From: a virus
Taxonomy: Duplodnaviria > Caudoviricetes
Strand: one strand, 5' to 3'
DNA length: 48,882 nucleotides
IMG/VR virus record: IMGVR_UViG_3300020449_000268
Location: 1 to 48,882 of that record
The notes below the pieces were generated by a model, which saw only the letters and a program-made list of their open reading frames with translations, made no database searches and was not told where the DNA came from. Each line of letters begins with the position of its first letter. The stretch's first letter is position 1. The position numbers were made by a program, and so were the translations under genes. Below are positions 2,598 through 46,832 of this stretch, in pieces.

Positions 2598-3926
2598 ATG
2601 AATGTAATTATATTATCACATAAAAGAAGTCTTAACAAGTCCGAAGGACTTATCACAGCGAATTTAAATAACCACATCACATTGGTTTGTGATGTGGTGC
2701 CTAACAAGTCAGGTGATCGCTACAAACCTTTCATAGAACACATAGACGATTTAGTTGTATCAAAGAAGTTTGATATAATAGAAATTACACAAAAAATTTT
2801 ATCGTGTGATAAAGTATATTGTGTATCAGAAAATTTATTTCCTATACAAGCACAATTAGAAAGTTACTACGGCATACAGAATATATCTGCTTTTGCAGCT
2901 GAAGTCTTTGCAAATAAACAAAAGATGGATGATTTTTGTAGAACAATAGGTCTAGGTCATAATGTACCTAAAAGTGTTACACCTACCTTTCATACTCAAT
3001 TAGATATATTTGAAGGCGATGAATTTTTTACAAAACCTGATATAGGTACAGGCAGTAACTCTTTCTATCCTAAATCTGAACAAAATGTACCTACTATAGA
3101 ATATAGAAGATGGAATAATAAACATCATTTTTTAGATCATCTTACTAAACTAGAACACAATAATAAATTTTTTGAGATAAACAAAAAAGGTATACAGAAT
3201 GAGAATTTTAATAATGTGCCTTGTAAGATTATGGCACAAGAATATTATTGGTCTGAAGAACCATCTATATCGCCATATGGTTATGTTAAGAATGGTAAAG
3301 TAGATTGTTTGTTCTATGTTAGAAATGCAAAAGTTAAATACGGCGATATACTAGACTTTAATAAAAATCCTATAGATCAACACTCAATCAGTAAGAAAAG
3401 TGATATTGCAAAAGATATGGCTGTATGGTCTATACCTGTTAGTCAAGTAGATGAAGAACAACATAAAATAATGTGTGGTTTTGTACAGACTATTGTTGAC
3501 AAATTAAAAGTAAAAGAAATGTACTTTGCAGGACCTGACTTTCATATATCAGGTAATAAATTAATTGCAATAGATTTTAACACACGTATAGGTCAGTTTA
3601 TTAATATATTAGATAAGTTACCTGGCAACAATATATTCAATAATATAGGTAACGAAAAAGAACCAGAGATTACAAATCATTTACTTTGGGGTTGTACACA
3701 ATTAAAACCTGGCATAGTAAAAGATATAAAAAATATAGAAGTAGTTGAAAAGTATTTAAATTATTTAAATGATAAGATTAAAATAGGTATGAAGATACCT
3801 GAATTTCAAAATCTACAAAATAAGAAGTTTAGTGTTAATTTAAATATTACTGGAAGAGATCAGCAAGAGCTGTTTGACAACTATAAGGATGCCAACCAGC
3901 TCTTACATAATTGTATTATTTACTAA
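2598..3926 (+). CDS. ATP-grasp domain ligase (amino-acid ligase-like)
   Basis: Motifs ANKQKM, FTKPDIGTGS, MAQEY and DFH...AIDFNTRIG (ExNxR-type). Confidence 0.75.
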   Translation: MNVIILSHKRSLNKSEGLITANLNNHITLVCDVVPNKSGDRYKPFIEHIDDLVVSKKFDIIEITQKILSCDKVYCVSENLFPIQAQLESYYGIQNISAFAAEVFANKQKMDDFCRTIGLGHNVPKSVTPTFHTQLDIFEGDEFFTKPDIGTGSNSFYPKSEQNVPTIEYRRWNNKHHFLDHLTKLEHNNKFFEINKKGIQNENFNNVPCKIMAQEYYWSEEPSISPYGYVKNGKVDCLFYVRNAKVKYGDILDFNKNPIDQHSISKKSDIAKDMAVWSIPVSQVDEEQHKIMCGFVQTIVDKLKVKEMYFAGPDFHISGNKLIAIDFNTRIGQFINILDKLPGNNIFNNIGNEKEPEITNHLLWGCTQLKPGIVKDIKNIEVVEKYLNYLNDKIKIGMKIPEFQNLQNKKFSVNLNITGRDQQELFDNYKDANQLLHNCIIY

Positions 3927-4698
3927 AGTTAGCAACAGCTTCTTCAAACATATCTATTGTTTGATTAGTACCATTCCCAACATAAGTAACAGAGCCTTTG
4001 AATTTACTATTCCACTCGGTAGTAGTAGAGAGGTTTGTTACCGTAGAACGTAATTCGTTTGTTAAGGCGTAGTTAGCATTAATGGTGATGATTGCGTCAA
4101 CAAATCTAAAACCTAATTGACCTTTTTCTGAAAAGGCAATACATTTAGATCCATCTTCCTCTAATGCGGCTTGACGTGAAGTAATCGTAAAGACCGTATC
4201 GGCATCCTTGCCAACATAACCTTTAGTAGTACTTCCGCTGCCAGAATAAGGTACAACTACAAAATTTACATTATATTTTGCACCTAAATTTTTTAAGAAT
4301 TTTGCAACTGGTTCTGATCCCCATGTCGCAATCTTAACCGTTTGTCCACTCATATCTTCAAGTGAATTGTATGCTCTACTACACATAAGAGTTTCATATG
4401 TCATTAAAGCAACAATATTATCTTTAGATACTTTCGGACTTTTTAAACTATCGTCACCTGGCCATTCACTAGACCATATCGTTAAGATAGGTTCTGTGCC
4501 ACCTTCAGCACCTTCTATATAAGTGTATGCAGTAACTGGATTGTCTGCCTGAACAAAGTTATGGTCAGTTGAATCACCTATTGTAGAAAGAATTTGTCTG
4601 AAGACACCTTCTTGTGAACCAGGGTTGATAATTTGCACTTGTGCGTATGCCATCGTACTGAATAACATACTCATTAATATTAACATTATTTTTTTCAT
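3916..4698 (-). CDS. TctC/Bug-like periplasmic substrate-binding protein (divergent)
   Basis: Has a signal peptide (AMAYA/Q). VVPYSGSGSTTKGYVGKDAD matches the Bug-family VPYxGxG...G..D motif. It is adjacent to tctA. Confidence 0.65.
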   Translation of the reverse strand: MKKIMLILMSMLFSTMAYAQVQIINPGSQEGVFRQILSTIGDSTDHNFVQADNPVTAYTYIEGAEGGTEPILTIWSSEWPGDDSLKSPKVSKDNIVALMTYETLMCSRAYNSLEDMSGQTVKIATWGSEPVAKFLKNLGAKYNVNFVVVPYSGSGSTTKGYVGKDADTVFTITSRQAALEEDGSKCIAFSEKGQLGFRFVDAIITINANYALTNELRSTVTNLSTTTEWNSKFKGSVTYVGNGTNQTIDMFEEAVANFSK

Positions 4699-4706
4699 TT
4701 TATCTC

Positions 4707-5993
4707 CTATAAGATTATTAATGTTCTAATTAAATTTTCATAAAATAGATCGCTTAGAAAGTATCCGTAAATTATAGGACTTGTGTCCCAGCGTCTAATT
4801 AAGAAACCGATTATAGACAAAACAAATATACAGATAATCATCCATTCGTGTATGGCGAATATTGAAATACTTGCAATGCTAATTATTGAGAGAAGTAAGA
4901 TATTTGCAATGTTTCTATATGTCTTATAGTAATATGCAATCTTACCTAACAGATTAAAACCGTACCAGCTTAACCATAAACAGAATACGGTCACAAAAGG
5001 AATAATATAGATTATATCTTTTAAGTGATTGACCGTGTTGTCTGCGTTGAATACGAATCCATCTTCTAACATAATATAATAAATCAAAACTTCACTTCCC
5101 GTTATGGGTATCGCTAGTATAAGCAAAGGCAATAGTGATGATAAGGCGCCACTATTATTTGCTGCCTCTGCGGCTGCTATGCTTTTAAGTACAGGTTTTT
5201 TGAAAAACCTTTTAACAATATTTGCACTTGCATAACTGCCAAGAATATTTGTTACACCAGGTATGAGACCACACCAGAACCCTACAAAACTCCCTATGAG
5301 TGTAGGTGTTGTAGTATCTTTACCTATTGTAAAATTATTTATACGTTTAGGTACTTCAACTTTAAAACTATTTAATTTTGTTAGTTCAGGCACGATATAT
5401 AAACCTATCATAACACTTGCAAAGGGTATGCCTATAGCAAGATATGAATTACCAAACGTTAGAAAACTATCAAACGTTATAGGGTCTATACCTACTTTTG
5501 CAATCATACCACCAAACAAGAACAATAGTATTGTAAACAATTTATTTTGTTTTGTCAATAGTGTAATCATTACAATTGCAGCTGCAACTATGATTGTCTG
5601 TAATACACTATTATAAAATCTAAAGACTTCTATAATTGTAGGCAATACTAATATAAATGCTGTAGTAGCAAATATAACTCCTATAGTACTACTAACAGCG
5701 TTAGAAGCAACTGCTAAATTACCGAAACCTTTTAAGAATAATCTATGACCATTTCTTGCAGTACTGATTGCTGTTGCGTCACCAGGTATACCATACAGAA
5801 TAGCAGTTACACTATTTGTATAATTTGTTGCAATCAATACCGTGATGTAATACATCATAACATTGACAGGTTCTATGTGCGTTAAGAAAGGATATAAAGT
5901 TGCAGTTGCAACAAAAGGTCCTGCACCTGGTATTACACCAAAGATAACACCACTTAAAGTGCCTATAACAGCCCAAAATATTGTATCAAACAT
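4707..5993 (-). CDS. tctA: Tripartite tricarboxylate transporter permease, TctA family
   Basis: Polytopic membrane protein with GVIPG, AILYGIPG, GIDP, GLIPG and AAAEAANNS...LPLL.LAIP signatures. Confidence 0.85.
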   Translation of the reverse strand: MFDTIFWAVIGTLSGVIFGVIPGAGPFVATATLYPFLTHIEPVNVMMYYITVLIATNYTNSVTAILYGIPGDATAISTARNGHRLFLKGFGNLAVASNAVSSTIGVIFATTAFILVLPTIIEVFRFYNSVLQTIIVAAAIVMITLLTKQNKLFTILLFLFGGMIAKVGIDPITFDSFLTFGNSYLAIGIPFASVMIGLYIVPELTKLNSFKVEVPKRINNFTIGKDTTTPTLIGSFVGFWCGLIPGVTNILGSYASANIVKRFFKKPVLKSIAAAEAANNSGALSSLLPLLILAIPITGSEVLIYYIMLEDGFVFNADNTVNHLKDIIYIIPFVTVFCLWLSWYGFNLLGKIAYYYKTYRNIANILLLSIISIASISIFAIHEWMIICIFVLSIIGFLIRRWDTSPIIYGYFLSDLFYENLIRTLIIL

Positions 5994-7759
5994 TAAAAGT
6001 ATTTTCTAAAGCCTAGATTAAAAGTTCTATCGTATTGATTATAACCATCTGGTCTTTCGTAAGACTTATCAAAGACGTTGTTTATACTCCAAAAGAAAGT
6101 AGTATTGTCAACATCAATGTTGTAACCTATATCAAATGTTTCAACAGCAGGCATATCTTTTCTTGCATATGTTGAAGCGTCTATGTCTTTATGTTTACCA
6201 AAGTAATTAAAATCAACATAGAAGTTATCATAATATATCGTTGATGTATTTTGCCAGTTAGGTCTTCTTAACATGTCTTTATCATCACCATCTTTAGATA
6301 CGGTATAAGATAGACTATTATTTAATTGTATCTTGCCATATGTAAATGTATTATTCAATTCTAAACCATGTTGATTACTTTGTTTCGTATCGTTAACGTA
6401 TGTGTTTGTATCATACTTTAAAAGATTATCTATTTCTGATTCAAAGTAAACAATACTATGACCGTCTGTTTTGTATCCTATTTCCCATGTTTTAGATTTT
6501 TCAGGTATAAGATTTTTATTACCTAAAAACCCATAGTTGTTTTTACCATACATCTCATAGACCGTAGGTGCTTTATAACCTGTAGAGTAACTTAAATGTA
6601 CACCATTATTTTCTACAGCGATTCTATGTGTGTATTGATCGTCAAATGTATTAGGTGTATCTAATCTGACACCACCATGTACAAAGACACCACTATCAAG
6701 TTGTTTATCTAAATTAATATAGTAACCATGATTGTGTCTTTCTTTATCTACGTTTGAGTCATAACCTGCAATGTTAGTATCAAAATCTATCTCTTGTATA
6801 TTATGTTCAAATCCTGTAGTTAAATCTAAACTATCTTTTAAATGAAAGGTATGACCTGCAATAAAAGTTTCTTGGTCTGAATTGTAAATATCTTTTGTAC
6901 CCTTGTCGTCATATGTTCTTTTGTGTTTAGATTTTTGAAAAGAAAACTCGGTATCTTTACTTTGTAAAGAAATGTATTGATTGTTAAATTGCCATTTAGA
7001 TGTATAATCAGTATAGTCTGTAGATTTATCTAAATCAGATTTGTTTACCGTCTGTATAATATTTGATTTTAACATCCACTTACCTAAAAACTTTTCTACT
7101 TGAAAGATATAATTTCTATCAGCAATACCATCTTTTTCTGTGCCATCTACTACAGATATACCATCAGCAGTTTCATTCTCAACTCTAAAGTCTATGATAA
7201 AACCCTTTGAGTAATCTGCTTTACCAAGTTTTATTATTTGTGTTTTCTGACCAAAACTACCACCAGATAACTCAATATAATTTAAACCATTTGCCTGTGT
7301 AACCATGTTGATAACGCCACCTATTGCATTAGGTCCATAGATACTACCCATAGGTCCTTTGATTACTTCAACTCTATCTACACCAAGAAAACTATGAGCA
7401 AATAAGTCTTCAGTACCATTCGGTGTTGAGTGATCTTGTATAGCAATACCATTAAGTGTAATAAGAGTATGGTTTGAATTTGTACCTCTCATAAATGTAG
7501 AAGTTAACTGACCATCAGGACCAGATTGTACAACGTTTAAAGAAGATACTTTTTGTAGTTCGTCTTTGTCTGCTGATACAACTTCATATGAATATGTTTT
7601 ATGAGTTAGATCGCTTGAGTTTCTAATAAATGATTTGCAGATATAGATAATCATAGTGCCATCTTCATCAAATTGTGGCCTATCACCTCTACAATCATCT
7701 GCTTTAGCGCTTGTAAAACTAATTAGTAATACAAATAATGTGAGTAATATTTTATACAT
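5993..7759 (-). CDS. btuB: TonB-dependent outer-membrane receptor, BtuB (cobalamin)-like
   Basis: Start re-called to MYKILL (signal peptide). Plug motifs are GQLTSTFMRGTNSNH and RVEVIKGPMGSIYGPNAIGGVINMVT. Barrel motifs are YKAP...GNKNL.PEKS, LRRP and NVFDKSYE...GY, with a terminal Phe. All resemble E. coli BtuB. Confidence 0.8.
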   Translation of the reverse strand: MYKILLTLFVLLISFTSAKADDCRGDRPQFDEDGTMIIYICKSFIRNSSDLTHKTYSYEVVSADKDELQKVSSLNVVQSGPDGQLTSTFMRGTNSNHTLITLNGIAIQDHSTPNGTEDLFAHSFLGVDRVEVIKGPMGSIYGPNAIGGVINMVTQANGLNYIELSGGSFGQKTQIIKLGKADYSKGFIIDFRVENETADGISVVDGTEKDGIADRNYIFQVEKFLGKWMLKSNIIQTVNKSDLDKSTDYTDYTSKWQFNNQYISLQSKDTEFSFQKSKHKRTYDDKGTKDIYNSDQETFIAGHTFHLKDSLDLTTGFEHNIQEIDFDTNIAGYDSNVDKERHNHGYYINLDKQLDSGVFVHGGVRLDTPNTFDDQYTHRIAVENNGVHLSYSTGYKAPTVYEMYGKNNYGFLGNKNLIPEKSKTWEIGYKTDGHSIVYFESEIDNLLKYDTNTYVNDTKQSNQHGLELNNTFTYGKIQLNNSLSYTVSKDGDDKDMLRRPNWQNTSTIYYDNFYVDFNYFGKHKDIDASTYARKDMPAVETFDIGYNIDVDNTTFFWSINNVFDKSYERPDGYNQYDRTFNLGFRKYF

Positions 7760-8112
7760 AATTTTCCTATCATAACACATATCAAGGTAGATACCAAAAG
7801 ATTAAAATCAAAGGGTACTGCTTGTATGTAAGTTTGTAATAAATTGCCACCGTATGAGTACCATACAGCGAAGTTAACAACAACGTGCCAAATCAAAACG
7901 CCTAAAAACGTTGCTGTTATACTATTACTTATATGTCTGCCTAGTAAGACAAAAATTGCCATACAACCATAGACAGGTATCATTAGGCCATGAAAACCTA
8001 AAAATACATCTTTAAATAACATTAAAGATAATGGTATGCCATATTGTATTCTTTGATTACTTGTAATACTAGGTAGTAATATTGCAATAGCAAATAAAGG
8101 CGTTATATTCAT
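7723..8112 (-). CDS. DUF6580/BtuM-like small membrane transporter (putative cobalamin S-component)
   Basis: Hydrophobic 129 aa with the pattern NITPLFAIAI, IPL..M..KD..LG, VVNFAVW and Y.QAVPF..N. It is directly upstream of the BtuB-like gene. Confidence 0.65.
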   Translation of the reverse strand: MNITPLFAIAILLPSITSNQRIQYGIPLSLMLFKDVFLGFHGLMIPVYGCMAIFVLLGRHISNSITATFLGVLIWHVVVNFAVWYSYGGNLLQTYIQAVPFDFNLLVSTLICVMIGKLCIKYYSHYLYY

Positions 8113-8765
8113 AATAATTTTTTATACTTTTCTGTTTGTTTGCCAGTTATCTTGGCAATAGTTCTAGGCCATGGTCCTGTGTTTGCAGTACTATGAGGAA
8201 TATTTGCCCAATCAAACCATACTACATCACCTGCTTTCCATGGTGGTACATATGTATTCCCGAATTGAATAATATGTCCTGGTTTCCAATCTTCTAACAT
8301 AACAAAAACTCTACCCCATTCAGGATCAGTTGCTCTGCTTGATGATTGATCTTTTCTTTCTTTTCTTAAACCTGTTAAACTATCAATATGTAAATGTAAC
8401 ATCATACCAGTAGTTTGAGTTTGTATATTAACTTGTGCGTCTTCTAAACCTAACTTATCTGCTAAACCACATAATATAGGACACTCTTTCTTTGTTGCAG
8501 TCCACATTCTATAGATTACAAAATCTTTAGGTATGCCCCAATCTTCTACTAGTTTATTTTCATACTCGTAATCAAAATGATCGCCACCTGGTTTTACAGG
8601 ACTAGGCCAATAGAAATCATATTGTTGCTTGTTTGCATATTCTAATTCCTTTGACCAGTCCTCGTAAATGTTTGTAACCGTTTTAAAGTATTTACCATGA
8701 TCGCTTTCTCTAAAAGGATTGAAATCATAATTACTTTGTTTAACGGTTATATCCCACCTGTTCAT
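8109..8765 (-). CDS. 2OG-Fe(II)-type dioxygenase / cupin
   Basis: HxD (LHID), distal H (PHSTAN) and PR. Start re-called to the ATGA overlap at 8765. Confidence 0.7.
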   Translation of the reverse strand: MNRWDITVKQSNYDFNPFRESDHGKYFKTVTNIYEDWSKELEYANKQQYDFYWPSPVKPGGDHFDYEYENKLVEDWGIPKDFVIYRMWTATKKECPILCGLADKLGLEDAQVNIQTQTTGMMLHLHIDSLTGLRKERKDQSSSRATDPEWGRVFVMLEDWKPGHIIQFGNTYVPPWKAGDVVWFDWANIPHSTANTGPWPRTIAKITGKQTEKYKKLL

Positions 8766-9328
8766 GCCATGCTCCAAAATGCTTTGTTATTTGTAAATAG
8801 TGTGCCTTCGTAGTATTTAATTTTTACTCTCTCAAACCAAAACTTTAAATCTACTACTAAAGTTATTCTATCGTTTTTATTTTTCAATGATTTAGCAGTT
8901 CCGTGCATGTAATTCGCACTATAAATTATAGGCGTATCATTTGTATGTTCTACCCTTTCTACTATTTGGTCAAATTGATCTATCATTAAGATAGGTGTTT
9001 TAGACCAATCGTTATCAGGTTCATCACATATAACAGGAAATTGTAATTTAGTAAAGTTCTCAAAGTCCCAATGATTAGGTATACCACCAGGGTGTACTCT
9101 ACTAAAATATATTCTTTTCTCATCTACATCAACATTAATATTGTTTATTAGATGTTTGTAAAATTCATGGTTACGATCAAACGTATTGTTCTCATCTATA
9201 GGCCAGTATTGTGGTAACTTATCTTGTCTATGTACCCACTTTGTTTGATCTATAGTATTATAAAAATCTACTATCATCTCTTTATCAAACTTTAGTGTCT
9301 TGGCTTCTACAGAATAAAAATCAGTCAT
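8762..9328 (-). CDS. 2OG-Fe(II)-type dioxygenase / cupin
   Basis: PGGIPNHWD...MHG...DRITL triad pattern. Confidence 0.65.
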   Translation of the reverse strand: MTDFYSVEAKTLKFDKEMIVDFYNTIDQTKWVHRQDKLPQYWPIDENNTFDRNHEFYKHLINNINVDVDEKRIYFSRVHPGGIPNHWDFENFTKLQFPVICDEPDNDWSKTPILMIDQFDQIVERVEHTNDTPIIYSANYMHGTAKSLKNKNDRITLVVDLKFWFERVKIKYYEGTLFTNNKAFWSMA

Positions 9329-9929
9329 TTGATACTCCTATGTTTTCTGTATTCTTACTTAACCATGTACCGTTCTTTGCTCTCTCGTACATTTCTGTAG
9401 GATGTGTGTGTATGTTTACAGAAAACACTACACGTTCCTCTTCATCATCTATAGGTGTAGGTACAGCATGTAAAACTCTGCTATCAAAAAATACAGGCGT
9501 ACCATTATCATGTATCTTACTTTTCTCAAAGTTAAATCTTTCTATTTCTGTATAGTTTTCTGTTGCAAATATTTGAGGCGTTAGATGAAACTTACCTTTT
9601 ACAGGAAACAATACAGCACCCCAACGTCTATGGTCATAATGTAAATTGATACCACCTGGTGGTAATTTAGAAAAGAAACACCAAGGTTTCTTTTTCTCAA
9701 CTCCTCTTTCACTACTACCTACAAAATCTAACGTGCTATTTTCTACAATATCTTTCCACATATTCTCGTATGGTATATTTCTACACTCATTAACAGTCCA
9801 CGTTACACCAGTTACACTTGTACCATCAACCCAATCACTAGGTTTTAAACTTTCAAGCACGTCAACTAACCATTGTTGATTGTAATAAATGTTATGACAT
9901 TTGACAAAGAAGTTACCTTGTTCAAACAT
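9321..9929 (-). CDS. 2OG-Fe(II)-type dioxygenase / cupin
   Basis: PGGINLHYD...LHAV...ERVVFS. Confidence 0.7.
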   Translation of the reverse strand: MFEQGNFFVKCHNIYYNQQWLVDVLESLKPSDWVDGTSVTGVTWTVNECRNIPYENMWKDIVENSTLDFVGSSERGVEKKKPWCFFSKLPPGGINLHYDHRRWGAVLFPVKGKFHLTPQIFATENYTEIERFNFEKSKIHDNGTPVFFDSRVLHAVPTPIDDEEERVVFSVNIHTHPTEMYERAKNGTWLSKNTENIGVSND

Positions 9930-10827
9930 GACTCATCTCCGTAAATATTCTGTACATAGGTGGTCTGTATAAATTACAATGGTCATAATCAACTTTGTTT
10001 ATTTTTAAACCTACATGTCCTGCAAGTGTATTTACAGCATGTTCAGTCCAGTTAAAGTACCATGTGTACTTCCAGTTTCTATCGTAGAAATAAAACGCAC
10101 TATTTTTTTGTGCGTGTTCTAAATCGCCATGTATCCAAGTGTGACCATGTGGGTGATCTGGTTGAAATACTTTATAGTAATTATGAACATGTGACCATAA
10201 TAGTAAACCACTAGGTGCTAAACATTTCTTTAACGTCATAAAGTTTCTATATTGTTCATCATACGTATACCAGTTTTGAGGACCAAAACATATAATTACA
10301 TCCCATTTTATATCATCAGCAGGTTTAAAATCTGCTTGACTACACAATATATCTGCTTCTTTTCTGTAAGGGTCAACACCTGTAACATTGTTTAAGTGTT
10401 TCTTATATTCGTTTACACCACAACCCATATCTAATATTGTTAGATTAGGTCTTTCTTTTTGCATTGCTTGTAATCTTTTAACAAGAGCGTCACCTCTTAT
10501 ATTCCATTTGTTCGTAATAGGTTTATCGTTTACATCTTTTATTTCACCTACGACACCTGTTGTACTTGTACCATTTTCTGCTACAAAGTAATTGTGTTGA
10601 TATTGTTTGTCTATTTCTTTTACGAAATCACCCATTGTTTTATCATGCCAATCCATAATACCACCAAGACGTATGGGATATTCTTTATCTCTTACTTTCA
10701 TTGAAAATTCTTTTTGACAAGTAAGAATAAAGTCCATTGTAAAAGGTAATTGATTGATAGGGCTATCTACTGATATGTTCCAGTAAAATAATTCTTCTAC
10801 TTTATTCCAGATTAATTTGTTTATCAT
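9922..10827 (-). CDS. Class I SAM-dependent methyltransferase with an N-terminal ACP-like domain
   Basis: ILDMGCG, VTGVDP and WDVIICFG motifs. Start re-called to MINKL. The first ~78 aa resemble an acyl-carrier helical bundle. Confidence 0.75.
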   Translation of the reverse strand: MINKLIWNKVEELFYWNISVDSPINQLPFTMDFILTCQKEFSMKVRDKEYPIRLGGIMDWHDKTMGDFVKEIDKQYQHNYFVAENGTSTTGVVGEIKDVNDKPITNKWNIRGDALVKRLQAMQKERPNLTILDMGCGVNEYKKHLNNVTGVDPYRKEADILCSQADFKPADDIKWDVIICFGPQNWYTYDEQYRNFMTLKKCLAPSGLLLWSHVHNYYKVFQPDHPHGHTWIHGDLEHAQKNSAFYFYDRNWKYTWYFNWTEHAVNTLAGHVGLKINKVDYDHCNLYRPPMYRIFTEMSHV

Positions 10828-12488
10828 ATTTTTCTCCAAGACTCACTAAATCTACCTCTAACGTGTATATCTCTGAGCCATTCCATCTTATCGTCAATAG
10901 GTCTGAAATCATTTTTGTTGCGATCAATAATCTCATCATATTCAGGATACATTTCTTTGAATACATCAAATATATTATTCTCGGTATAGAATAAGTGAGA
11001 ATAAGCTGTATCTGTATAATAATTTATATCTTTATTAAGTATCTTATATCCAATGTCTTTGTAGTCATTAAGTGCTTTAAAATAATGTTCTCTAACATCT
11101 AGTTTGTGTTTCATAAATGTTTTGTTCTTAAATAATTTAGAATATATGTCCATAAATAATTCACTTCTATTACCATTAATTTCATAATAACAATCAGCAT
11201 GATACTTTGCAAGACCATACCAGTACATTGGTATTAAGAAACTTCTACTATAAAAGAAACCTTCAAAGACTTGATCTCTTGTCATCTTATCTGTTGCAAC
11301 AGCGATCTCATCTATTACATCATTGTTATATGGCTTTGCTGTACCTTTTATATTCTGCCATATCATTTCAGGAAAACCTGTATTAAATTCTGTATTACTT
11401 AATCTACTTAAAGTATTAATCTGTATCATATCAAAAGGTGCAGGCATGTCAACTATTTCGTGTAGTCCATATTTAAATGTTTCTATTGTATCGCCTGGTA
11501 GAGGAAATATTAATTCTGTATAAGAAGAAACGCCTTTGTCTTTTAAATCTTTTATTATAGGTTTGAAACTCTTAATATCAAACGCATTTTTTCTTTTTAC
11601 ATTTTTTAACGTTTCAGGATTTGTAGATTGTAAACTAAAACCAAAAGTGTCATCTACACTTGCGTCTTGTAATTTTTTTGCAAGTTTCATTATCTTGTCA
11701 CCGTGTGTCTTTGCCCACGTAGGCATAAATCTACCATTAAAGTTACCTGCTTTCTTTTGTTCTACAACAAAATCTACAAGTTTCTCATCTCTAGGAAATA
11801 TACCAAAGTTACTATCTGCAACATCAATAGCACTTACGTTTCTATCACACATCCACTTTAATTCTTTTATACATTTTTCTGTTTCAAACATTTGTATCTT
11901 TGTATATTTTTTATGTCCTATATCACAGAAAGAGCAAGTGTAAGGACAACCTCTATTGCCTTCAAATATTGCTCTAACTTTTTGATTGTTGCCTTCTAGT
12001 AAACTATCAAAGAAACCATTAAGATAAGGACTAGGTATCATCTTTGGGTCAGCATATATTGCCTCAGCTGCATTATCAAAATCTTTTGTTACTACACCAG
12101 GTATATTGAAGTCATCATCTACCAGTATTCTTCTCATAGTTTCTTCACCATAATATGCTAAAACAGCGTCAACTTCAGGATGTTCTCTACACCATTCAGA
12201 TGTATATTTTGGTTCAGGCCCGCCTACAACTATTTTACATTTAGGATACTTTTTCTTTACTTCTTTTAATACGTCATATGTTTGTTTCCAGTTCCACATA
12301 TAACAACTTGCAGCTATGAAATCAGGATCAACAATATCAATCTCTTTATTCCACCACACACCTGCAAGTCTGTATTTGTCTTGCACTTCTTTAAATTGAT
12401 TACAATAGGACCATATTGTACCTACTGCTTGTGGCAGATAGGCTGCGTCTGTACCTAAAGGTATTTGTAGAAAATAGAAGTTACGCAT
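10824..12488 (-). CDS. Cobalamin-dependent (class B-type) radical SAM enzyme
   Basis: N-terminal B12-binding-type domain (PDF...SCYMWN...KIVVGGP) and NRGCPYTCSFC. Start re-called to MRNFYF. Confidence 0.85.
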   Translation of the reverse strand: MRNFYFLQIPLGTDAAYLPQAVGTIWSYCNQFKEVQDKYRLAGVWWNKEIDIVDPDFIAASCYMWNWKQTYDVLKEVKKKYPKCKIVVGGPEPKYTSEWCREHPEVDAVLAYYGEETMRRILVDDDFNIPGVVTKDFDNAAEAIYADPKMIPSPYLNGFFDSLLEGNNQKVRAIFEGNRGCPYTCSFCDIGHKKYTKIQMFETEKCIKELKWMCDRNVSAIDVADSNFGIFPRDEKLVDFVVEQKKAGNFNGRFMPTWAKTHGDKIMKLAKKLQDASVDDTFGFSLQSTNPETLKNVKRKNAFDIKSFKPIIKDLKDKGVSSYTELIFPLPGDTIETFKYGLHEIVDMPAPFDMIQINTLSRLSNTEFNTGFPEMIWQNIKGTAKPYNNDVIDEIAVATDKMTRDQVFEGFFYSRSFLIPMYWYGLAKYHADCYYEINGNRSELFMDIYSKLFKNKTFMKHKLDVREHYFKALNDYKDIGYKILNKDINYYTDTAYSHLFYTENNIFDVFKEMYPEYDEIIDRNKNDFRPIDDKMEWLRDIHVRGRFSESWRKI

Positions 12489-13014
12489 TTTTGAAATTCT
12501 TTGTGTCTGTCCATATAGTCTTCTTGTCAATCTTATCAAACAACTTATCAACCCACTCAAATAAATCCATCATCAATACCCAACGAGGTCCTGTATCAGT
12601 TAATTGTCTAGGCACAGCATGTAACATACGTGTGTTGAATATAACAGGACTATCAACTACAAATGACTCTACTGGATGATTGAATTGATCGTAGAAGTAT
12701 TGAGGTGTGTTTTCAAAATCACCTTTCAAAGGTATACCTAGATTGCCCCACTTGTTGTGGTCAATATGATTTACTAGCCCACCAGGTTTCACATTACTAA
12801 TAAAGAAAGATGGTCTTTTAAATTCTGCATTAAGACCTTCATATAATTCATTTAGTATAGGAAATTGTTTAGGACTTAAAGGTAGTTCTTCAACATTCCA
12901 AAGTAAACCATTTTGATCGTACCCTTGTCTCCATGTTGCTCTTTCAGCATATTCAATTATCTCATTGAAAACGTTAGTGTCGTATTGTAATTTAAATTTT
13001 TTATGATACCACAT
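12481..13014 (-). CDS. 2OG-Fe(II)-type dioxygenase / cupin
   Basis: PGGLVNHID...LHAV...PRWVL. Paralog of 9321..9929. Confidence 0.7.
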   Translation of the reverse strand: MWYHKKFKLQYDTNVFNEIIEYAERATWRQGYDQNGLLWNVEELPLSPKQFPILNELYEGLNAEFKRPSFFISNVKPGGLVNHIDHNKWGNLGIPLKGDFENTPQYFYDQFNHPVESFVVDSPVIFNTRMLHAVPRQLTDTGPRWVLMMDLFEWVDKLFDKIDKKTIWTDTKNFKNA

Positions 13015-13667
13015 TATGCAAACCTATATTGTTCTATTAGTGTTTTAAAACATTCCTCATCAAACTTCAAACAGAATACACACATAATTATATCTTCAGC
13101 AGTACTGAATACAGAATGTCTTTTGTTTGCGTTGAAATAATACAAGGTGCCATCTTCTACATCTCGTACCGTATCTTCATATATAAACTTTAAATCTTTT
13201 TTATTACAATTATTAATAAACGCAATCAATCTTATTTCTTCGTAACCAAATTCTATTTTGTTTATATCATAATGTTCAGGAAAATATCCACCTGTGTTTA
13301 GTTTTAGAAAGTGACATCTACCTAACCATGGTTTCCATGGTGCAATAAGTTTTTGTATTTCTTCAGATTGTTTGTATACCTCGGTGTATTCTTTTATATG
13401 ATGATTTGTAATACTTGTGCCATGTATCTTATTGTATTGTAGTAAACTATCTAAATCAGGCACGCCACTTAACTTGCCATCTAAACTTGTTATACTTAAA
13501 CCCCACCTGTTGTTTGGGTTTCTTAAATTGTAAGGTTTCCAATGATGTTTAAATCCTTCAATGTCTTCCATTATCTGTCTAGTGTTGATCTTTTGTTTCA
13601 TTTGTAACCAATCACCCATAAAAGAAAGTCTTTGAAGTGCCTTGTTTGTTCTATCTACACTACTCAT
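13014..13667 (-). CDS. Aspartyl/asparaginyl beta-hydroxylase-like 2OG-Fe(II) dioxygenase
   Basis: GGYFPEHYD...GTLYYFNANKRHSVF. Confidence 0.7.
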   Translation of the reverse strand: MSSVDRTNKALQRLSFMGDWLQMKQKINTRQIMEDIEGFKHHWKPYNLRNPNNRWGLSITSLDGKLSGVPDLDSLLQYNKIHGTSITNHHIKEYTEVYKQSEEIQKLIAPWKPWLGRCHFLKLNTGGYFPEHYDINKIEFGYEEIRLIAFINNCNKKDLKFIYEDTVRDVEDGTLYYFNANKRHSVFSTAEDIIMCVFCLKFDEECFKTLIEQYRFA

Positions 13668-14320
13668 ACAAATTTTATCCTTTTATTTTTTTCATTTTGT
13701 TCCCAGTTTACTAAAGTACCATCTAGTAATCTTTTCTCTATATCTTCATAACTATTATGTCGCCAAGCACAAGTTATAATAATTCTATTCTTTTCTGTTT
13801 TGTTTTCAACACCATGTATTTCAGGACCTTTAAATATCCAAGGTGCAAATTCATTTGTTATATCATTTTTTTCGTATGTCATTCTATACTTTTCTGTACT
13901 TCTATCAAAACTATCATAGAAGACTTGAGGACTTGTATCACTAAACTCACCTCTAATTGCAAAGTTTAAAGCAGTAGGTCTGTTTCTATCTTGGTGTGGT
14001 GGTGCACCACCTATTGCTGTTTGTGTGTACAATACGGTATCAAAAGATATTGCAGGCGTAAAAAGTTTTATCAACTCATAATGAAACTCACTAAAAGGAT
14101 AATTTTTACATTCCCGTCTAGCGTTAAATGCCTCTTGTACGGTCCATCTTATGTGACCACAATCAAACAGATACCAATTGTTCTCGCTTATATTCTCTAA
14201 ATGATTTAATAGATATTCTCTATCATACCAAAGAGATTTAAGTTCCCGACAATACGGTGCTGATCTTGTTTCTTCCAAGGACGTCAACCTTATCTCTGGC
14301 GTCATCATTAAACCTTTCAT
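13664..14320 (-). CDS. 2OG-Fe(II)-type dioxygenase / cupin
   Basis: PPHQD...ALNF...IHGVEN...NRIII. The start is uncertain because it overlaps the upstream gene. Confidence 0.7.
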   Translation of the reverse strand: MKGLMMTPEIRLTSLEETRSAPYCRELKSLWYDREYLLNHLENISENNWYLFDCGHIRWTVQEAFNARRECKNYPFSEFHYELIKLFTPAISFDTVLYTQTAIGGAPPHQDRNRPTALNFAIRGEFSDTSPQVFYDSFDRSTEKYRMTYEKNDITNEFAPWIFKGPEIHGVENKTEKNRIIITCAWRHNSYEDIEKRLLDGTLVNWEQNEKNKRIKFV

Positions 14321-14828
14321 AATTTGTTTGTATAATTTCTAAATACTTTATCATTGTATCAGCGTCTGATACTTGAAAACACGTCATAGGATTGTGTGTA
14401 AAGTCTTCATACTTACAATGTTTCATAATTAGATTGTCTATAATCATAGCGTATCTATGACTACAATTTCCTAATCCCTCTTTACTCATACTCTCTAACA
14501 TACCTATAGATGTAGCCCAATCACCATTAGGGTCAGGTAAGTTTTTTAAGTATGATAAATTTTCTGATTTGTGATATGCGTTTTGTACGTAACAATTATC
14601 AACACTTGTAAAATATACTTCATCAATACCTAGTTCTCTTATCTTGCTGTAATAGAAGTCGTATGCTTTTAAATGTGTGGCTGCATACTCAACAAGAAAT
14701 ACGCCAGGCAATCCTATTAGTAATATTTTTTTATCTTTAAATAATTCGTGTGTAGAATACCAGTTTGTGGCTGCACTATCTTTGTGCATAGTTTTTACGT
14801 CTGGTATTATATCGCCAACTCTTATCAT
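14238..14828 (-). CDS. Peroxiredoxin (Prx5/redoxin)-fold protein lacking the peroxidatic Cys
   Basis: MIRVGD.IP, ELFKDKK..LIGLPG, GIDEVY..SV and RYAMIID match Prx5. The PGAFTPTC motif reads PGVFLVEY. Confidence 0.75.
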   Translation of the reverse strand: MIRVGDIIPDVKTMHKDSAATNWYSTHELFKDKKILLIGLPGVFLVEYAATHLKAYDFYYSKIRELGIDEVYFTSVDNCYVQNAYHKSENLSYLKNLPDPNGDWATSIGMLESMSKEGLGNCSHRYAMIIDNLIMKHCKYEDFTHNPMTCFQVSDADTMIKYLEIIQTNYERFNDDARDKVDVLGRNKISTVLSGT

Positions 14829-16675
14829 AACATAATCTCCTTTGATTTCAAAAAACATCTCTTGGCTTTTCTTCCCCACCAGAATAAATGCTTTGAGTGG
14901 TCTACTATATCTTTATATTTATAAACGGCTACAGATACGATATTGTTAACAGCGACTAATGGTTTGTTATCATAGAACCAACTATACCAGTTTTTGTTAA
15001 ATTGTTTTTCTGTATCATCTCTTTCGTATGTGTCAATAATGTGCTTGTTAAACTGGCACGCTTCTGATACATCAACATTATATTCTTTCTTACATATGTC
15101 TATAATTTCTTTATGTACCTTGTCTATGTTTCTATATAAAAATGAAGCTGTTGCACCATTATCTTGTATATGAAAATCATCACCACCTTCTATAGTTCTT
15201 CCCCATGTCTTATCTTCAAACAAACTTTCTTTTAAACTATTTGTGTGATTTATATATTCTTCATTTAGTATACCATCGCCATCTCTACTATACTTAAATA
15301 GTTTTTTATAAAAATCAATAAATGATATATTATGTTCTCGGTTTAAATATGTGGCTGCAACTTGACTAACGCCATGATAGTGATGAGGTATCACAAGACC
15401 TTTAGCAAAAAAATACATGTCTATATAATCTTGTTTACTATAACTTTTACTTTCATATGCAACATAATCAATCTCACCATTACTATCTTTAGGATAAGTA
15501 TTACCACCTGCAGGTGCAGCTGTCTTTGTATATTTGTATCCGTATTTGTTTTTATATTCAGGTTCAGAAAAAGGAGTATTAGGCACAATACTCAAAGGGT
15601 GTACCGTCAACGCATGGTCACTTCCTAATTCTAGTATCTTACCTATTCCTTCTATCCATGTTTCTAATGTTTCTTCAGGTAGACCTACAATCAGTTCACA
15701 ATAATTATCAACGCCTGCCTTGTTATAGTCGCCTACAATTTGTTCTAATTTTTCATTTGCAAGATTAATTCTTTTGATTGCTTTTAGTGTTTTAGGATTC
15801 ATACTTTGTAAAGCAATTGTAACACCACGTCTTATCTTTGCTTCTTTGTTAAGTATTTCACCTAACTCTACAATACGTTTTGGTTGTTGTTTTGCTGTAC
15901 TATAATCTATCTGTCTAGGATAACCAGTTTCATTTCTACGTTTAGCGATGTGTCTTATAAAGTCAACATCTCTATTAAACATACCTACATTACTATCGCC
16001 AAAGTATAAGAAGTCAATTTTATTTTTTACAATCCAATCTATCTCACCTATTACTCTATCATAATCAAACATAGCAATCTTATTATAATATAAATCTTGT
16101 TGATCGCAGAAAGAACAACTATATGGACAACCTCTATTTGTTTCTATGATAGCACTATATTGTTTACCAGGTTTCATAAGACTATCCATCAACCCACTTA
16201 AATAAGGACTAGGTATATCGTTTAACTCTCTATCTGGTTTAGGTGGCGTATAAGATTCTTTTGTCATTACGCCTGGGTATGTATAGTTACCTTTTAGTAT
16301 TTCAGCAAATGCTCTTTCACCTGCATATGTAACTATAATATCGCATAGATCAGGATTGTCTTCTAACCAACTTTGTTTGAATGGCACTTGTGGTCCACCC
16401 ATTACTATTTTACAATTAGGATATTTCTTTTTGACTGCTCGTGCTAACTGACAAGTTATGTCCCAGTTCCACACGTATGTTGATAGTGCTAAAATGTCAG
16501 GATTGTCAATCTTCTTTAGATAGTCCTCTACGGATTCTCTCTCAAAGAAGATGTCGCCTAGTTCCCAATCTGTTACCTGTGTCTTACAATATTCCCAAAT
16601 ATATGCAACACTTAATGGTAAGAATATTGCGTCAGCAATTAGATTGTTTATTTGTGTAAAATATACCTTTTTCAA
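14825..16675 (-). CDS. Cobalamin-dependent (class B-type) radical SAM enzyme
   Basis: PDILALSTYVWN...KIVMGGPQ, TNRGCPYSCSFC and ELIVGLPEET. TTG start with an AAGGA RBS. Paralog of 10824..12488. Confidence 0.85.
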   Translation of the reverse strand: MKKVYFTQINNLIADAIFLPLSVAYIWEYCKTQVTDWELGDIFFERESVEDYLKKIDNPDILALSTYVWNWDITCQLARAVKKKYPNCKIVMGGPQVPFKQSWLEDNPDLCDIIVTYAGERAFAEILKGNYTYPGVMTKESYTPPKPDRELNDIPSPYLSGLMDSLMKPGKQYSAIIETNRGCPYSCSFCDQQDLYYNKIAMFDYDRVIGEIDWIVKNKIDFLYFGDSNVGMFNRDVDFIRHIAKRRNETGYPRQIDYSTAKQQPKRIVELGEILNKEAKIRRGVTIALQSMNPKTLKAIKRINLANEKLEQIVGDYNKAGVDNYCELIVGLPEETLETWIEGIGKILELGSDHALTVHPLSIVPNTPFSEPEYKNKYGYKYTKTAAPAGGNTYPKDSNGEIDYVAYESKSYSKQDYIDMYFFAKGLVIPHHYHGVSQVAATYLNREHNISFIDFYKKLFKYSRDGDGILNEEYINHTNSLKESLFEDKTWGRTIEGGDDFHIQDNGATASFLYRNIDKVHKEIIDICKKEYNVDVSEACQFNKHIIDTYERDDTEKQFNKNWYSWFYDNKPLVAVNNIVSVAVYKYKDIVDHSKHLFWWGRKAKRCFLKSKEIML

Positions 16676-16712
16676 GTTTCATTTCCTTAATCTCTCTACT
16701 CTACACTATTGT

Positions 16713-16728
16713 TATTTATACATAAATA
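16713..16728. promoter_or_regulatory. Divergent late promoter pair
   Basis: tatttat-ac-ataaata gives TATAAATA on - (16713-16720) and CATAAATA on + (16721-16728), between the two divergent operons. Confidence 0.7.
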
Positions 16729-16742
16729 TGTTATAATTAGTT

Positions 16743-17618
16743 ATGAAAAACGTAAATATAGTATGCACTAGTAAGCCTGGCGATGGCCTATTACATTATA
16801 GTTATGAACATTGTTGTTTTCTCAATGATCTAGGTATAAACACTAAACTCATAATCGTCAAAAACAAAAAACATACAGATCAGGATTACATTGACGCAAT
16901 AAATGAGTGTTATACTAAATTTGAGAATGTAATATTTGATGACTATATGCCAAAGTCAGATGATATAACTTTGATTATGGGTAGAAGTATGTTGACACTT
17001 GCATACCTAGATTATAATAGTTATACCGAAGAACAAAAACTAACATTACATAGTTTGTTTGGTGGTAAACTCATTTCTGTTTATTCAGAAAATCACGTCA
17101 AAGAATATCCTATTGCGTTAAATCATTTTAATTTTACACCAGAAAAAGTTGTTGATCTATGCGACCACGAAGTTTACGTAAATGGTGTAGGCAAACAATT
17201 TGAAAAGATAATAAATTTTAGTATATATAAACCAGTAGTTGATGATATAAAAGTTAAGCATTTGTTTTTAGGAACGAATAGAACATACTATAGAGAAGTT
17301 GAAAGACACATAAAAGATTATCCAGATCATGGTATTTTAGCATATAAAGACAAGTATATAAATGAAAAACGTAATCACTTATTTGTACCTGTTAAAAATT
17401 TACTAGGAATATTTGACACATATGTTTACACTAAACCTAATTTTGATCCTGCACCTAGAATAATACAAGAATGTAAATGGTTAGGTAAAAAATTTATATA
17501 CGCAAGAAGTAAAGATTTAAAAGATGGCGGTCCTGTTTATGTAGATAGACCTGCAAAATGTCTAACTGAACAAAAAGATAAAATAGAAAATTTACTAAAA
17601 TGGATAGAGAAACTATAA
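16743..17618 (+). CDS. Putative GT-B fold glycosyltransferase (divergent)
   Basis: N-terminal GDG loop. FDTYVY...DPAPRIIQEC..LGK resembles the GT4 E/D-x7-E motif. Confidence 0.45.
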   Translation: MKNVNIVCTSKPGDGLLHYSYEHCCFLNDLGINTKLIIVKNKKHTDQDYIDAINECYTKFENVIFDDYMPKSDDITLIMGRSMLTLAYLDYNSYTEEQKLTLHSLFGGKLISVYSENHVKEYPIALNHFNFTPEKVVDLCDHEVYVNGVGKQFEKIINFSIYKPVVDDIKVKHLFLGTNRTYYREVERHIKDYPDHGILAYKDKYINEKRNHLFVPVKNLLGIFDTYVYTKPNFDPAPRIIQECKWLGKKFIYARSKDLKDGGPVYVDRPAKCLTEQKDKIENLLKWIEKL

Positions 17619-18274
17619 GCGATACAAGTCCTATTTCTTTCTTTAGGCGTCCTAGAAATGGTATTAACGTTGATATTAGTTTTAGATGTCCTTTAGAATG
17701 TATGAGATGTCAAAGACAAACTAACTTTACATTTCATGGTAGAAAAGTATATGGTAAAGACGCAACAATGGACGAAGTGAAAAAACTAGCAGCTCACTTT
17801 ACACAATTAAATTTTTGTGGTCAGTTATCTGATCCTGTACATCATCCTAAATTCCCAGAGATATTAGAGTATTTGTATAAGAATGGTAATGAGGCTTCAA
17901 TACATAATGCGTCATCAGCTAAATCAGAAAAATTTTATATAAAATGTTTTGAGGCACATCCTGACGCAAAATGGATATTTGGTATAGATGGTATGCCAGA
18001 AGAAAGTAGTATGTATAGAGTTAACCAAGATGGTGAAAAACTATTTAAAATAATGTTAAAGTCAAAAGAGTATCTAACAAAATCACCATCATGGCAATAT
18101 ATCGTCTTTAGTTATAATGAACACAATATACAAAAGGCAAAAGACCTTGCAAAAAAACATGGTCTTATGATGATTATGTTACACTCGTCAAGGTGGATGG
18201 CTGAAAGTGATCCATTAAGACCTAAATCAACAGAATACAATTTACAATTTCAAGGTTATACTAGAGATGAGTAA
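17600..18274 (+). CDS. Radical SAM core-only protein
   Basis: CPLECMRC, FCGQLSDP, FGIDG and WQYIVF.YNEH. No C-terminal SPASM. Confidence 0.8.
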   Translation: MDRETISDTSPISFFRRPRNGINVDISFRCPLECMRCQRQTNFTFHGRKVYGKDATMDEVKKLAAHFTQLNFCGQLSDPVHHPKFPEILEYLYKNGNEASIHNASSAKSEKFYIKCFEAHPDAKWIFGIDGMPEESSMYRVNQDGEKLFKIMLKSKEYLTKSPSWQYIVFSYNEHNIQKAKDLAKKHGLMMIMLHSSRWMAESDPLRPKSTEYNLQFQGYTRDE

Positions 18275-18635
18275 GTATAAGGGCAAATTTGTTGCTCAAT
18301 GTATGAATGGTAAAATGCAATTGGCTATGAACAATAGAGGTGTGTTAATGCCTTGTTGTTGGTGTGACCATGAGCATACGTTAAGTACGCCTTTGTTTAA
18401 GAAGATGGAAAAAGTTAGTAAAGTAGCAGAAGCAGATAGTATAGAAGATATATTATTTTCAGATGAATGGTTAGATTTTGAAAAGATAATGAGAGAAGGT
18501 GAGGCAGGCGATACAAGTAGAGTGCCTGAAAATTGTATGTATCATTGTAGTGGTAGAGGTGAAGATGAGGAAAAAGTTAAGATAGAACATCATATAGATG
18601 AAGTAGGCGAATCAATTAATAAACATAAAGCATGA
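18267..18635 (+). CDS. Stand-alone SPASM/twitch-like Fe-S domain protein
   Basis: C...G.LMPCC...SIEDIL.S.EW...C..HC pattern. Confidence 0.65.
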   Translation: MSKYKGKFVAQCMNGKMQLAMNNRGVLMPCCWCDHEHTLSTPLFKKMEKVSKVAEADSIEDILFSDEWLDFEKIMREGEAGDTSRVPENCMYHCSGRGEDEEKVKIEHHIDEVGESINKHKA

Positions 18636-19372
18636 AGAAATATTTAATAGTAAGTGGTTGTAGTTGGGGTGATCCTAACTTTATTTCAGCAGAACATCCT
18701 GATATGGATACGTCTTGGAAAATGTGGCCTGAAATATTAGCAGAGAAGTTAGATATGCAACTTATAAATCTTTGTAAATCAGGACAAGGACAAGAATATA
18801 TCTATAGTTCATTGGTTGATAGATTACAAACTACACCTATTAATCAAATAGGATTAATGATAGCTGCATGGTCAACAGCACCTAGACGTGATTATCAAAT
18901 GTCAGGATTTCAAACAAGAAAACAATTGTGGACTGCCGATCAATTTGATTGGCGTGGTTGTATTGAATATTGGATAGATAGAAGTATGAGATATTATTAC
19001 TCGTTTCAATCTGTTATGGAATTACACCGAATACCTTACAAACAAATACAAATGGTTCACTTGTACACAGGTTATATGTGGGAACAATTAAGAAAAAGAT
19101 CAAATAATCCTACACATAAAGATAATGAAGACAATTTAGAAGGTGATGACTATGTATTTAAACAAGAGTATAAAAAAATGTGCGAAGAACAAATATTAAG
19201 TAATCCTTATTATAATAAAATAAATAAAAACTTTATAGATTTTTATAGAGTTGCTAAACCATCAGAAATTTATGGTGCTAAGTCTATAGAAAGAATATCG
19301 GAAAGAGATAAACACCCAAGTGAAAAAGGGCAACAACAAATAGCGAGGTTAATATATGACGGGTTGGGATAG
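18632..19372 (+). CDS. SGNH/GDSL-like hydrolase or acyltransferase
   Basis: SGCSW (GxS), WP..LA..L...NL..SG.G and a C-terminal DKHP (DxH). Confidence 0.7.
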   Translation: MKKYLIVSGCSWGDPNFISAEHPDMDTSWKMWPEILAEKLDMQLINLCKSGQGQEYIYSSLVDRLQTTPINQIGLMIAAWSTAPRRDYQMSGFQTRKQLWTADQFDWRGCIEYWIDRSMRYYYSFQSVMELHRIPYKQIQMVHLYTGYMWEQLRKRSNNPTHKDNEDNLEGDDYVFKQEYKKMCEEQILSNPYYNKINKNFIDFYRVAKPSEIYGAKSIERISERDKHPSEKGQQQIARLIYDGLG

Positions 19373-20411: not shown

Positions 20412-20725
20412 AAATAATAATTAGTCCTGACATAACCACATTTTGTTACATTGATGAACATGATAATATGGTTGATATAACAGATCAGATACCATACAGA
20501 TTAAGAGAATTTGTAAAACGAATGAAGTTTATCTTTGACGATAAAATAATCATAGACAGGTCTTATACAGAAAAAGAAAATGAAGATGTTTACGAGTACC
20601 TTATAGAAAAGGCCTACGAAACAAAAGATTATTGTTTTAAAAAAACTAAATTTAAACCTAAGCCTAAAGAAAAAATGTTAATAGCATTTAACAAATTGTT
20701 CTTTAACAAATATGACAATAGATGA
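20408..20725 (+). CDS. Hypothetical protein
   Basis: ORF coupled by ATGA overlaps at both ends. Confidence 0.6.
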   Translation: MKIIISPDITTFCYIDEHDNMVDITDQIPYRLREFVKRMKFIFDDKIIIDRSYTEKENEDVYEYLIEKAYETKDYCFKKTKFKPKPKEKMLIAFNKLFFNKYDNR

Positions 20726-45966: not shown

Positions 45967-46017
45967 ACTATTCTCCTTTTACAATGTTCGGAAATTAATA
46001 TAAGATTATGTTATTAA

Positions 46018-46032
46018 TATTTATAATAAATA
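46018..46032. promoter_or_regulatory. Divergent late promoter pair
   Basis: tatttat-a-ataaata gives TATAAATA on - (46018-46025) and AATAAATA on + (46025-46032). Confidence 0.65.
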
Positions 46033-46037
46033 GTCAA

Positions 46038-46823: not shown

Positions 46824-46832
46824 TGATATAAT
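46804..46832 (+). promoter_or_regulatory. Perfect-consensus sigma70 promoter
   Basis: TTGACA (46804-46809), 17 nt, TATAAT (46827-46832), with an extended -10 TG. Confidence 0.7.

Follow-up and report, generated by a model that had tools for sequence, protein, structure and literature searches.

The pelagimyophage host recognition cluster was described by Zaragoza-Solas et al. (2020, PMC7029224), who note radical S-adenosylmethionine (SAM) cassettes and glycosyltransferases within it; the supplementary table of auxiliary metabolic genes of that paper lists a TonB-dependent vitamin B12 receptor and TctA, either for this phage group or for cyanomyophages (the marked column is not certainly readable). 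In the parts of its text accessible to us, there is no mention of cobalamin or TonB, nor of a link between transporters and B12 radical SAM enzymes, a pathway, a swap or a bacterial counterpart. A tctA domain has been noted in SUP05 viruses (PMC4164917), and the TonB receptor of Mar_Mega_1 has been termed SusC (PMC9723777), both according to the accessible portions of those papers. Here, we report a 15-gene cassette in a 48,882-nucleotide stretch of phage DNA (IMG/VR record IMGVR_UViG_3300020449_000268, positions 1 to 48,882; hereafter the window, the whole stretch analyzed), from the same phage group and from the same region after a VrlC-like gene. Our tentative reading is a conserved phage tailoring pathway which imports a precursor, together with B12 in some phages, and makes a group for a surface glycan. 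An original prediction, made from the letters of the window, knew of no described phage system with this combination; the combination was indeed not found in the literature, but both transporter types had already been listed in the 2020 supplement. No paper linking these transporters to B12 radical SAM enzymes, or describing the cassette, its swaps or its bacterial counterpart, was found in a search that left other supplements and most subscription papers outside.

The window is the tail region of a T4-like myophage with baseplate genes, and its gp6 is closest to those of the Pelagibacter phages Mosig (59.5%) and HTVC008M, and also of Melnitz. A relative, G054 (128.7 kb, 79% complete), whose first radical SAM protein is 97% identical to that of the window, encodes ribosomal S21, peptide deformylase and an Asp/Asn hydroxylase. 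Because these are pelagimyophage core genes (PMC7029224, in the part consulted), the host is probably SAR11, judging from gene content; Melnitz, of the same phage group, is recorded on Methylophilales. The 14 minus-strand genes of the cassette were found downstream of a DUF4815 gene (2024 aa), which presumably corresponds to VrlC of the published cluster (PMC7029224), and the position of the cassette is the host-recognition region of HTVC008M/Mosig-like myophages. The 15 genes are:

14825..16675, minus strand: rSAM1, KedN5-like B12-binding radical SAM enzyme (PF02310 and PF04055; NF033712, E 9e-56, 189 bits)
14238..14828, minus strand: peroxiredoxin-5-like protein (Redoxin, E 1e-11; alignment)
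13664..14320, minus strand: ox1, HxD..H..R cupin oxygenase (motif alignment)
13014..13667, minus strand: ox2, HxD..H cupin with no Arg at the position that binds 2-oxoglutarate (2OG) (only Cupin_2, E 0.009)
12481..13014, minus strand: ox3, HxD..H..R cupin oxygenase (motif alignment)
10824..12488, minus strand: rSAM2, B12-binding radical SAM enzyme, 36% identical to rSAM1 (Pfam B12-binding and Radical_SAM)
9922..10827, minus strand: SAM-dependent methyltransferase whose N-terminus forms a small helical domain (Methyltransf_23, below cut-off)
9321..9929, minus strand: ox4, paralogue of ox1/ox3 (alignment)
8762..9328, minus strand: ox5, paralogue of ox1/ox3 (alignment)
8109..8765, minus strand: ox6, 2OG/Fe oxygenase-like (profile match to AtsK, E 3e-4)
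7723..8112, minus strand: DUF6580 S-component, short form without the first helix (PF20221 positions 27-147)
5993..7759, minus strand: BtuB-like TonB-dependent receptor (Plug and TonB barrel; TIGR01779; fold)
4707..5993, minus strand: TctA, tripartite tricarboxylate transporter (TTT) membrane subunit (PF01970, E 1e-58)
3916..4698, minus strand: TctC-like substrate-binding protein, divergent (Atlas cluster PF03401, 51%; PDB)
2598..3926, plus strand: convergent ATP-grasp-like gene and constant part of the unit (weak family call)

The minus-strand open reading frames (ORFs) span 16675 to 3916 and, using likely start codons, 12 of the 13 junctions overlap, the remaining one being an 8-nt gap, so the predicted run of 14 mostly overlapping genes stands. 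The limits given for the unit, 3916..16720, were too narrow: the ATP-grasp-like gene also belongs to it, because it follows tctC/proW in all 36 loci extending that far and is present in a bacterial-type copy (L289, below). All cassette genes are intact and under purifying selection (dN/dS, the ratio of nonsynonymous to synonymous substitution rates, is 0.01-0.27 across all 15 genes, 2598-3926 included, against up to six relatives), which rules out pseudogenes. A chimeric assembly, which had been considered at the outset, is ruled out as well, as the full gene order was found again on many independent contigs.

How constant the parts of the cassette are was read from a metagenome scan, which returned 60 loci; three weak ones were dropped and 57 analyzed. 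Thirty-six of the 57 span the methyltransferase to the ATP-grasp-like gene, and 32 of them are distinct, related copies not being independent events. An inner-membrane importer is encoded in every one of these 32, as TctA plus TctC in 28 and as a ProX/ProW-like pair in four. The 12 cassettes with a BtuB-like gene are exactly those with a pelagimyophage flank, the receptor always being in the same slot (one of the 12 is approximately the window's own genome); the 20 others are without it, two of them ending less than 500 nt from the ATP-grasp-like gene. Two receptor versions, 25% alike, occupy the slot, i.e., a long form with DUF6580 in seven cassettes and a short form (542-546 aa) without DUF6580 in five. 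From these patterns, B12 import appears to be a lineage-specific add-on whose slot was filled twice, the binding-protein importer being the constant part. Several of the non-pelagimyophage copies come from jumbo phages, their contigs being 137-236 kb long at a completeness of 36-66%. The idea, already in the original prediction, of a tailoring pathway packaged with its supply lines is supported.

The bacterial-type copy, L289, is a 24-kb metagenome contig, of which 20.9 kb was examined; proteins 74% like its methyltransferase occur on contigs of up to 2.6 Mb. Nine genes are common to L289 and the phage unit (31-54%), including the ATP-grasp-like gene, ox1-3, the peroxiredoxin-like gene, the methyltransferase and both radical SAM genes. 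L289 additionally encodes an HMGL-like synthase, the large and small subunits of an aconitase, a class I/II aminotransferase, MmgE/PrpD and a carbamoyltransferase, and TctA, ProW and the receptor are all missing from the 20.9 kb. A set of the synthase/aconitase type elongates a 2-oxoacid via a citrate-like intermediate, as in the leucine and homocitrate pathways. The simplest reading of this comparison would be that the phages import what the bacterium makes.

Both B12-binding radical SAM enzymes named in the prediction hold up, since the B12-binding and radical SAM domains are above the Pfam cut-offs in rSAM1 and rSAM2, and the CxxxCxxC motif is invariant in the alignment. The best NCBIfam model of both is the KedN5 family (NF033712), i.e., B12 radical SAM C-methyltransferases, which they resemble in these domains and in being paired with a SAM methyltransferase, but with 167-189 bits against a cut-off of 700; our literature search found no paper on KedN5 chemistry. 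The HxD..H motif is present in the six predicted ORFs, but the downstream Arg, also used to recognize 2OG/Fe(II) dioxygenases, is found in five and missing from ox2; ox1, ox3, ox4 and ox5 are paralogues with an invariant HxD..H..R, and none of the six matched a Pfam 2OG oxygenase family. The peroxiredoxin-like protein, first taken as Cys-less, has lost its peroxidatic Cys but keeps C150, which is invariant in 6/6 sequences. The next protein, first taken as ACP-like/methyltransferase, keeps the second half of that name. An acyl carrier protein (ACP) has a phosphopantetheine Ser in a DSL-type motif, and the N-terminal domain here has neither a Pfam PP-binding match nor a DSL-type Ser motif. The methyltransferase marker was not found in 401 Alphaproteobacteria in a scan with no positive control. 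For the protein of 2598-3926, the family call comes from ATP-grasp_3 (E 0.059 in two of 17 sequences) and from ATP-grasp-like motifs seen by eye.

Some loci carry parts of the cassette. rSAM1, the peroxiredoxin-like gene and ox1 are missing from L332 and L336, in which rSAM2 and both importers are kept; L201/L202 are without rSAM2 and keep rSAM1 and the short receptor. The methyltransferase is also found beside ox6 without the rest (L310:10001-11588, on a contig of 44% GC) and alone before a glycosyltransferase-like gene (L337, L338).

The receptor of the window, predicted as BtuB-like, is closest to BtuB both by profile and by predicted fold, with a Plug and a 22-strand TonB-dependent barrel. 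A profile of 47 receptor sequences matched BtuB in the PDB at E 3e-64 and the next receptor at 2e-25, and Foldseek ranks 1-12 of the AF2 model (pLDDT 87.8) are all BtuB. It is alike to E. coli BtuB (PDB 1NQE-1NQH, 2GSK) in Plug and barrel (TM ~0.8), and acidic residues aligned to positions that we take to be the calcium loop of BtuB are invariant in the receptor family. It differs in its identity of 22-23%, in scores below the equivalog cut-offs (best NCBIfam model TIGR01779, 175 bits under a cut-off of 600; NF007926, 155 bits under 836) and in that the window has no cobalamin riboswitch. At the receptor N-terminus (window 7654-7700), close relatives have two Cys around a TonB-box-like strand, in an insertion that most of the family does not have.

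DUF6580, predicted as BtuM-like, shares with BtuM and ECF-CbrT the S-component fold and is the neighbor of a btuB-like gene. The fold was modeled for a long homologue, L041 (BtuM Z 12.7, tied with other S-components). However, BtuM is defined by an invariant Co-ligating Cys (PMC6072759, in the part consulted), and the 18 DUF6580 sequences have no invariant Cys; no genes of an energy-coupling factor (ECF) module are in the window either. The sole PDB sequence match of DUF6580 was the 6FNP chain (ECF-CbrT, E 0.044), whereas the search from a single sequence gave no match and Foldseek none at E < 0.001. We predict that DUF6580 is an inner-membrane B12 carrier. An AdoCbl-II riboswitch (72-93 bits, cut-off 36.5) lies directly above DUF6580-receptor pairs in four of the 26 phage loci scanned (L046, L054, L048 and L051), and above the receptor and DUF6580 in G220, a 1.2-Mb alphaproteobacterial genome. 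Since cobalamin riboswitches precede homologous pairs, B12 specificity is supported; the pair very probably carries a corrinoid and likely serves the radical SAM enzymes of the cassette. BtuCDF and TonB were not found. Supply of B12 to a class II ribonucleotide reductase was rejected, the sole ribonucleotide reductase found in five contigs being class Ia. Glutamine (glnA) riboswitch matches above cut-off were also seen on phage contigs near the receptor (L034:3594-3640, L033:9440-9487 and L020:6912-6960).

In G220, the receptor and DUF6580 end a glycosyltransferase/epimerase island beside the rRNA operon. The G220 family (genomes of 0.6-1.6 Mb, 26% GC) looks SAR11-like in genome size, GC and island layout. 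Among its 201 genomes, the receptor is in 31, a B12-binding domain in 88 and both in 28, i.e., the domain is in 28 of the 31 receptor genomes versus 60 of the 170 others (Fisher p 9e-9, the genomes not being independent). P. ubique is said to be without TonB-dependent iron uptake (PMC3475125, in the part consulted). The GTDB receptor scan (6/64 parts) gave one close match, a phage-like contig in a metagenome-assembled genome. A search of 50,697 cultured-phage records for the receptor, rSAM1 and TctA gave no true phage homologue, the matches being 23-34% and mostly bacterial-looking or unannotated.

TctA and the TctC-like protein resemble TctABC in that TctA is above the cut-off and has a TctC-like partner; they differ in having no TctB gene in the cassette, in the tie to a biosynthetic unit and in being swappable with ProX/ProW. 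The prediction of TctA is secure; that of TctC applies to a divergent protein, whose best PDB match is a TTT binding protein at a weak E of 0.056 and whose 21 relatives in a library-wide search include none with a name. Because L289 has the 2-oxoacid-elongation set and no importers, TctAC is more likely a precursor importer than a 2OG importer; we hold it about evenly balanced whether TctAC imports the pathway precursor.

We consider the following mechanism possible. TctA/TctC would bring in a small carboxylic-acid precursor, and in SAR11-type phages the BtuB-like receptor and DUF6580 would bring in cobalamin; the two B12 radical SAM enzymes may C-methylate the precursor and the oxygenases may hydroxylate it; then the ATP-grasp-like enzyme would, probably, attach the group to an amino sugar within a surface glycan encoded by the phage, on a virion fiber or on the infected-cell surface. 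We infer the ligands, the order of steps, the late timing and the glycan destination. Some O-antigens have C-methylated, hydroxylated 5-oxoproline groups amide-linked to amino sugars, which would need such an enzyme set. The genes adjoining the cassette are:

16743..27311, strand not assigned: sugar-pathway genes, i.e., DegT aminotransferase, radical SAM proteins, carbamoyltransferase, methyltransferase, glycosyltransferase and epimerase (Pfam)

This operon is linked to the cassette in the pelagimyophage-type copies only. A nucleotide-sugar or glycosyltransferase gene is within three genes in 16 of the 27 other lineages of the radical SAM family (142 neighbors scanned, no background rate). That the product ends on a glycan we would put at a little short of even. 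A more far-reaching version seems doubtful to us: a bacterial biosynthetic cluster would have been captured by phages, with precursor synthesis dropped and interchangeable importers added, namely one for the precursor in every case and, in SAR11-type phages, one that takes B12 across both membranes, which most of their hosts do not have. B12 import through a TonB-dependent receptor without a recognizable TonB would then lead to a new methylated virion surface group, making infected SAR11 a hidden B12 sink.

The timing argument uses one more feature:

16713..16720, minus strand: TATAAATA, late-promoter-like motif of T4 type, 38 nt above the first start codon

We take TATAAATA to be a T4-type late-promoter-like motif. 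The single motif of the prediction stands as to its place above the first gene, but the window has 15 copies against 12.4 +/- 3.6 expected, i.e., chance level, and two further copies fall within the cassette (14916 and 5336). Thirteen of the 15 lie in minus-strand orientation, with several directly above structural genes; position and strand are suggestive of a late promoter, and the cassette may be late. Late-promoter detection performed poorly in pelagimyophages (PMC7029224, in the part consulted). Sigma-70 promoter and terminator scans of the window were at chance level, and no tRNA or Rfam family was found in it. Contigs from RNA libraries (four studies) cover most of the region; these are uninformative on transcription, strand, timing or a single transcript and were not used.

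Several observations weigh against our reading. B12 supply, predicted as a fixed part of the pathway, is missing from 20 of the 32 cassettes and from 44 of the 50 contigs with this radical SAM family, the receptor being in only six of them and in none of the three near-complete ones; in reverse, a KedN5-like match is found in only 11 of 50 contigs that bear the receptor (3-56% complete). No TonB_C was found in G054 (79% complete) or in five phage contigs, which leaves the energy source unexplained, and among the 201 host-like genomes TonB_C is in one, which is outside the 31 with the receptor. DUF6580 of the window is without one helix. The ProX/ProW swap hints at a betaine/choline-type ligand, unlike a tricarboxylate. 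The PDB search with the 2598-3926 protein gave no match, and the ATP-grasp call is weak. The bacterial-type evidence is a single locus, in whose 20.9 kb neither a glycosyltransferase nor an amino-sugar gene is present. In most jumbo-phage copies, the flanking genes are radical SAM genes, not sugar genes, and 11 of the 27 other lineages have no sugar neighbors; four lineages have FolE and one has QueC. GTP cyclohydrolase I or QueC beside the radical SAM family, together with epimerase/DegT genes, is seen in L226, L235, L246, L256 and L233.

These last points bear on the destination of the product. With the same import logic, the product could be a small molecule that the infected cell makes in free form (a non-proteinogenic amino acid, a short amide or a metal chelator), the host-recognition region being a mere landing place for cassettes. 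L289 is natural-product-like in this respect, combining 2-oxoacid elongation, aminotransferase, carbamoyltransferase and ATP-grasp-like genes with no glycosyltransferase in the 20.9 kb; KedN5 is the best family model, the core moves without the sugar operon in jumbo phages, and a distant phage homologue adjoins an AMP-binding enzyme and a methyltransferase. We nevertheless find a free product rather unlikely, as no exporter or resistance gene was seen, the motif is late-type, the cassette is among tail genes, and sugar genes are the commonest neighbors of the wider radical SAM family.

The constancy of the importer has a second possible meaning. 2OG dioxygenases require 2-oxoglutarate, and TctA/TctC, in 28 of the 32 cassettes, could bring in 2OG or citrate as a co-substrate only for the six oxygenases, with virion proteins being modified directly; collagen-repeat fibers near a receptor pair in L007 would fit this. 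This weaker reading of TctAC, part of the original prediction, we regard as improbable: ProX/ProW replaces TctAC in four of the 32, L289 has precursor-synthesis genes, and no TctA is seen near other phage clusters that combine a B12 radical SAM enzyme with several 2OG oxygenases.

FolE and QueC beside the radical SAM family, together with QueC-like genes within the jumbo copies, would fit a pathway to a DNA hypermodification, i.e., a sugar- or acyl-decorated base, and DNA is a possible substrate of phage carbamoyltransferases, glycosyltransferases and 2OG oxygenases. The cassette, however, is among tail genes and away from the replication module of G054, no base-activating gene is annotated in the window, and the cassette is swapped among close relatives, all of which make this very unlikely.

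The receptor family itself has a wide distribution among marine myophages (109 relatives, of which 80 were kept), mostly not beside a radical SAM gene, and the radical SAM family is also common (450 relatives in 40/64 parts scanned, 79 loci kept). The B12 importer might be an independent auxiliary gene, serving host B12 enzymes or an outer-membrane change, with an incidental place in the operon. The receptor family is indeed found at numerous sites that have nothing in common, frequently with tRNAs or replication genes as neighbors, and host-like genomes have B12-domain genes of their own, but two different receptors in the same slot in 12/12 pelagimyophage-type cassettes and the recurrence of the pair beside a second radical SAM family make this, too, highly improbable. 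The latter refers to the pelagimyophage-type L007-L010, L073 and L081, where the receptor pair adjoins a different B12-type radical SAM gene. In five contigs, the receptor is after a PAAR gene and a KedN5-like gene is elsewhere.

Further radical SAM clusters and receptor neighbors were seen. A second pelagimyophage host-recognition operon (L182-L186, from G004, G014, G011, G042 and G006) has four radical SAM/SPASM-type genes, one B12 radical SAM gene and several 2OG oxygenases, and these phages keep the receptor apart, after a PAAR gene. An AMP-binding enzyme, a methyltransferase, a KedN5-like radical SAM enzyme and an oxygenase are encoded in a row in the contig of L042 (G001, a jumbo phage with the BtuB-like receptor; 147000-166999, locus L180:8318-12727), far from the receptor. 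Genes near the receptor in jumbo phages (L080:6968-8080, L059:6250-7389 and L070:4428-7040) encode ferrochelatase, serine hydroxymethyltransferase, the vitamin transporter Vut_1 and KDO-type synthase/cytidylyltransferase. The window itself has, at 46008-48347, a small plus-strand cluster with a nitroreductase, two SPASM proteins and a radical SAM protein.

Returning to the imported-precursor pathway with a surface-glycan product, the natural swaps (two receptors, TctAC versus ProX/ProW, synthesis versus import) provide handles on the pathway, and the compound made by the bacterial synthase/aconitase set would be the expected ligand of TctC. The question is also raised of how TonB-dependent receptors are energized in host-like genomes where TonB_C is so rare. 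If our reading is true, lytic phages of the ocean's commonest bacteria would run oxygen-sensitive, B12-dependent chemistry with their own vitamin and precursor uptake, and viral infection would be tied to marine B12 cycling.

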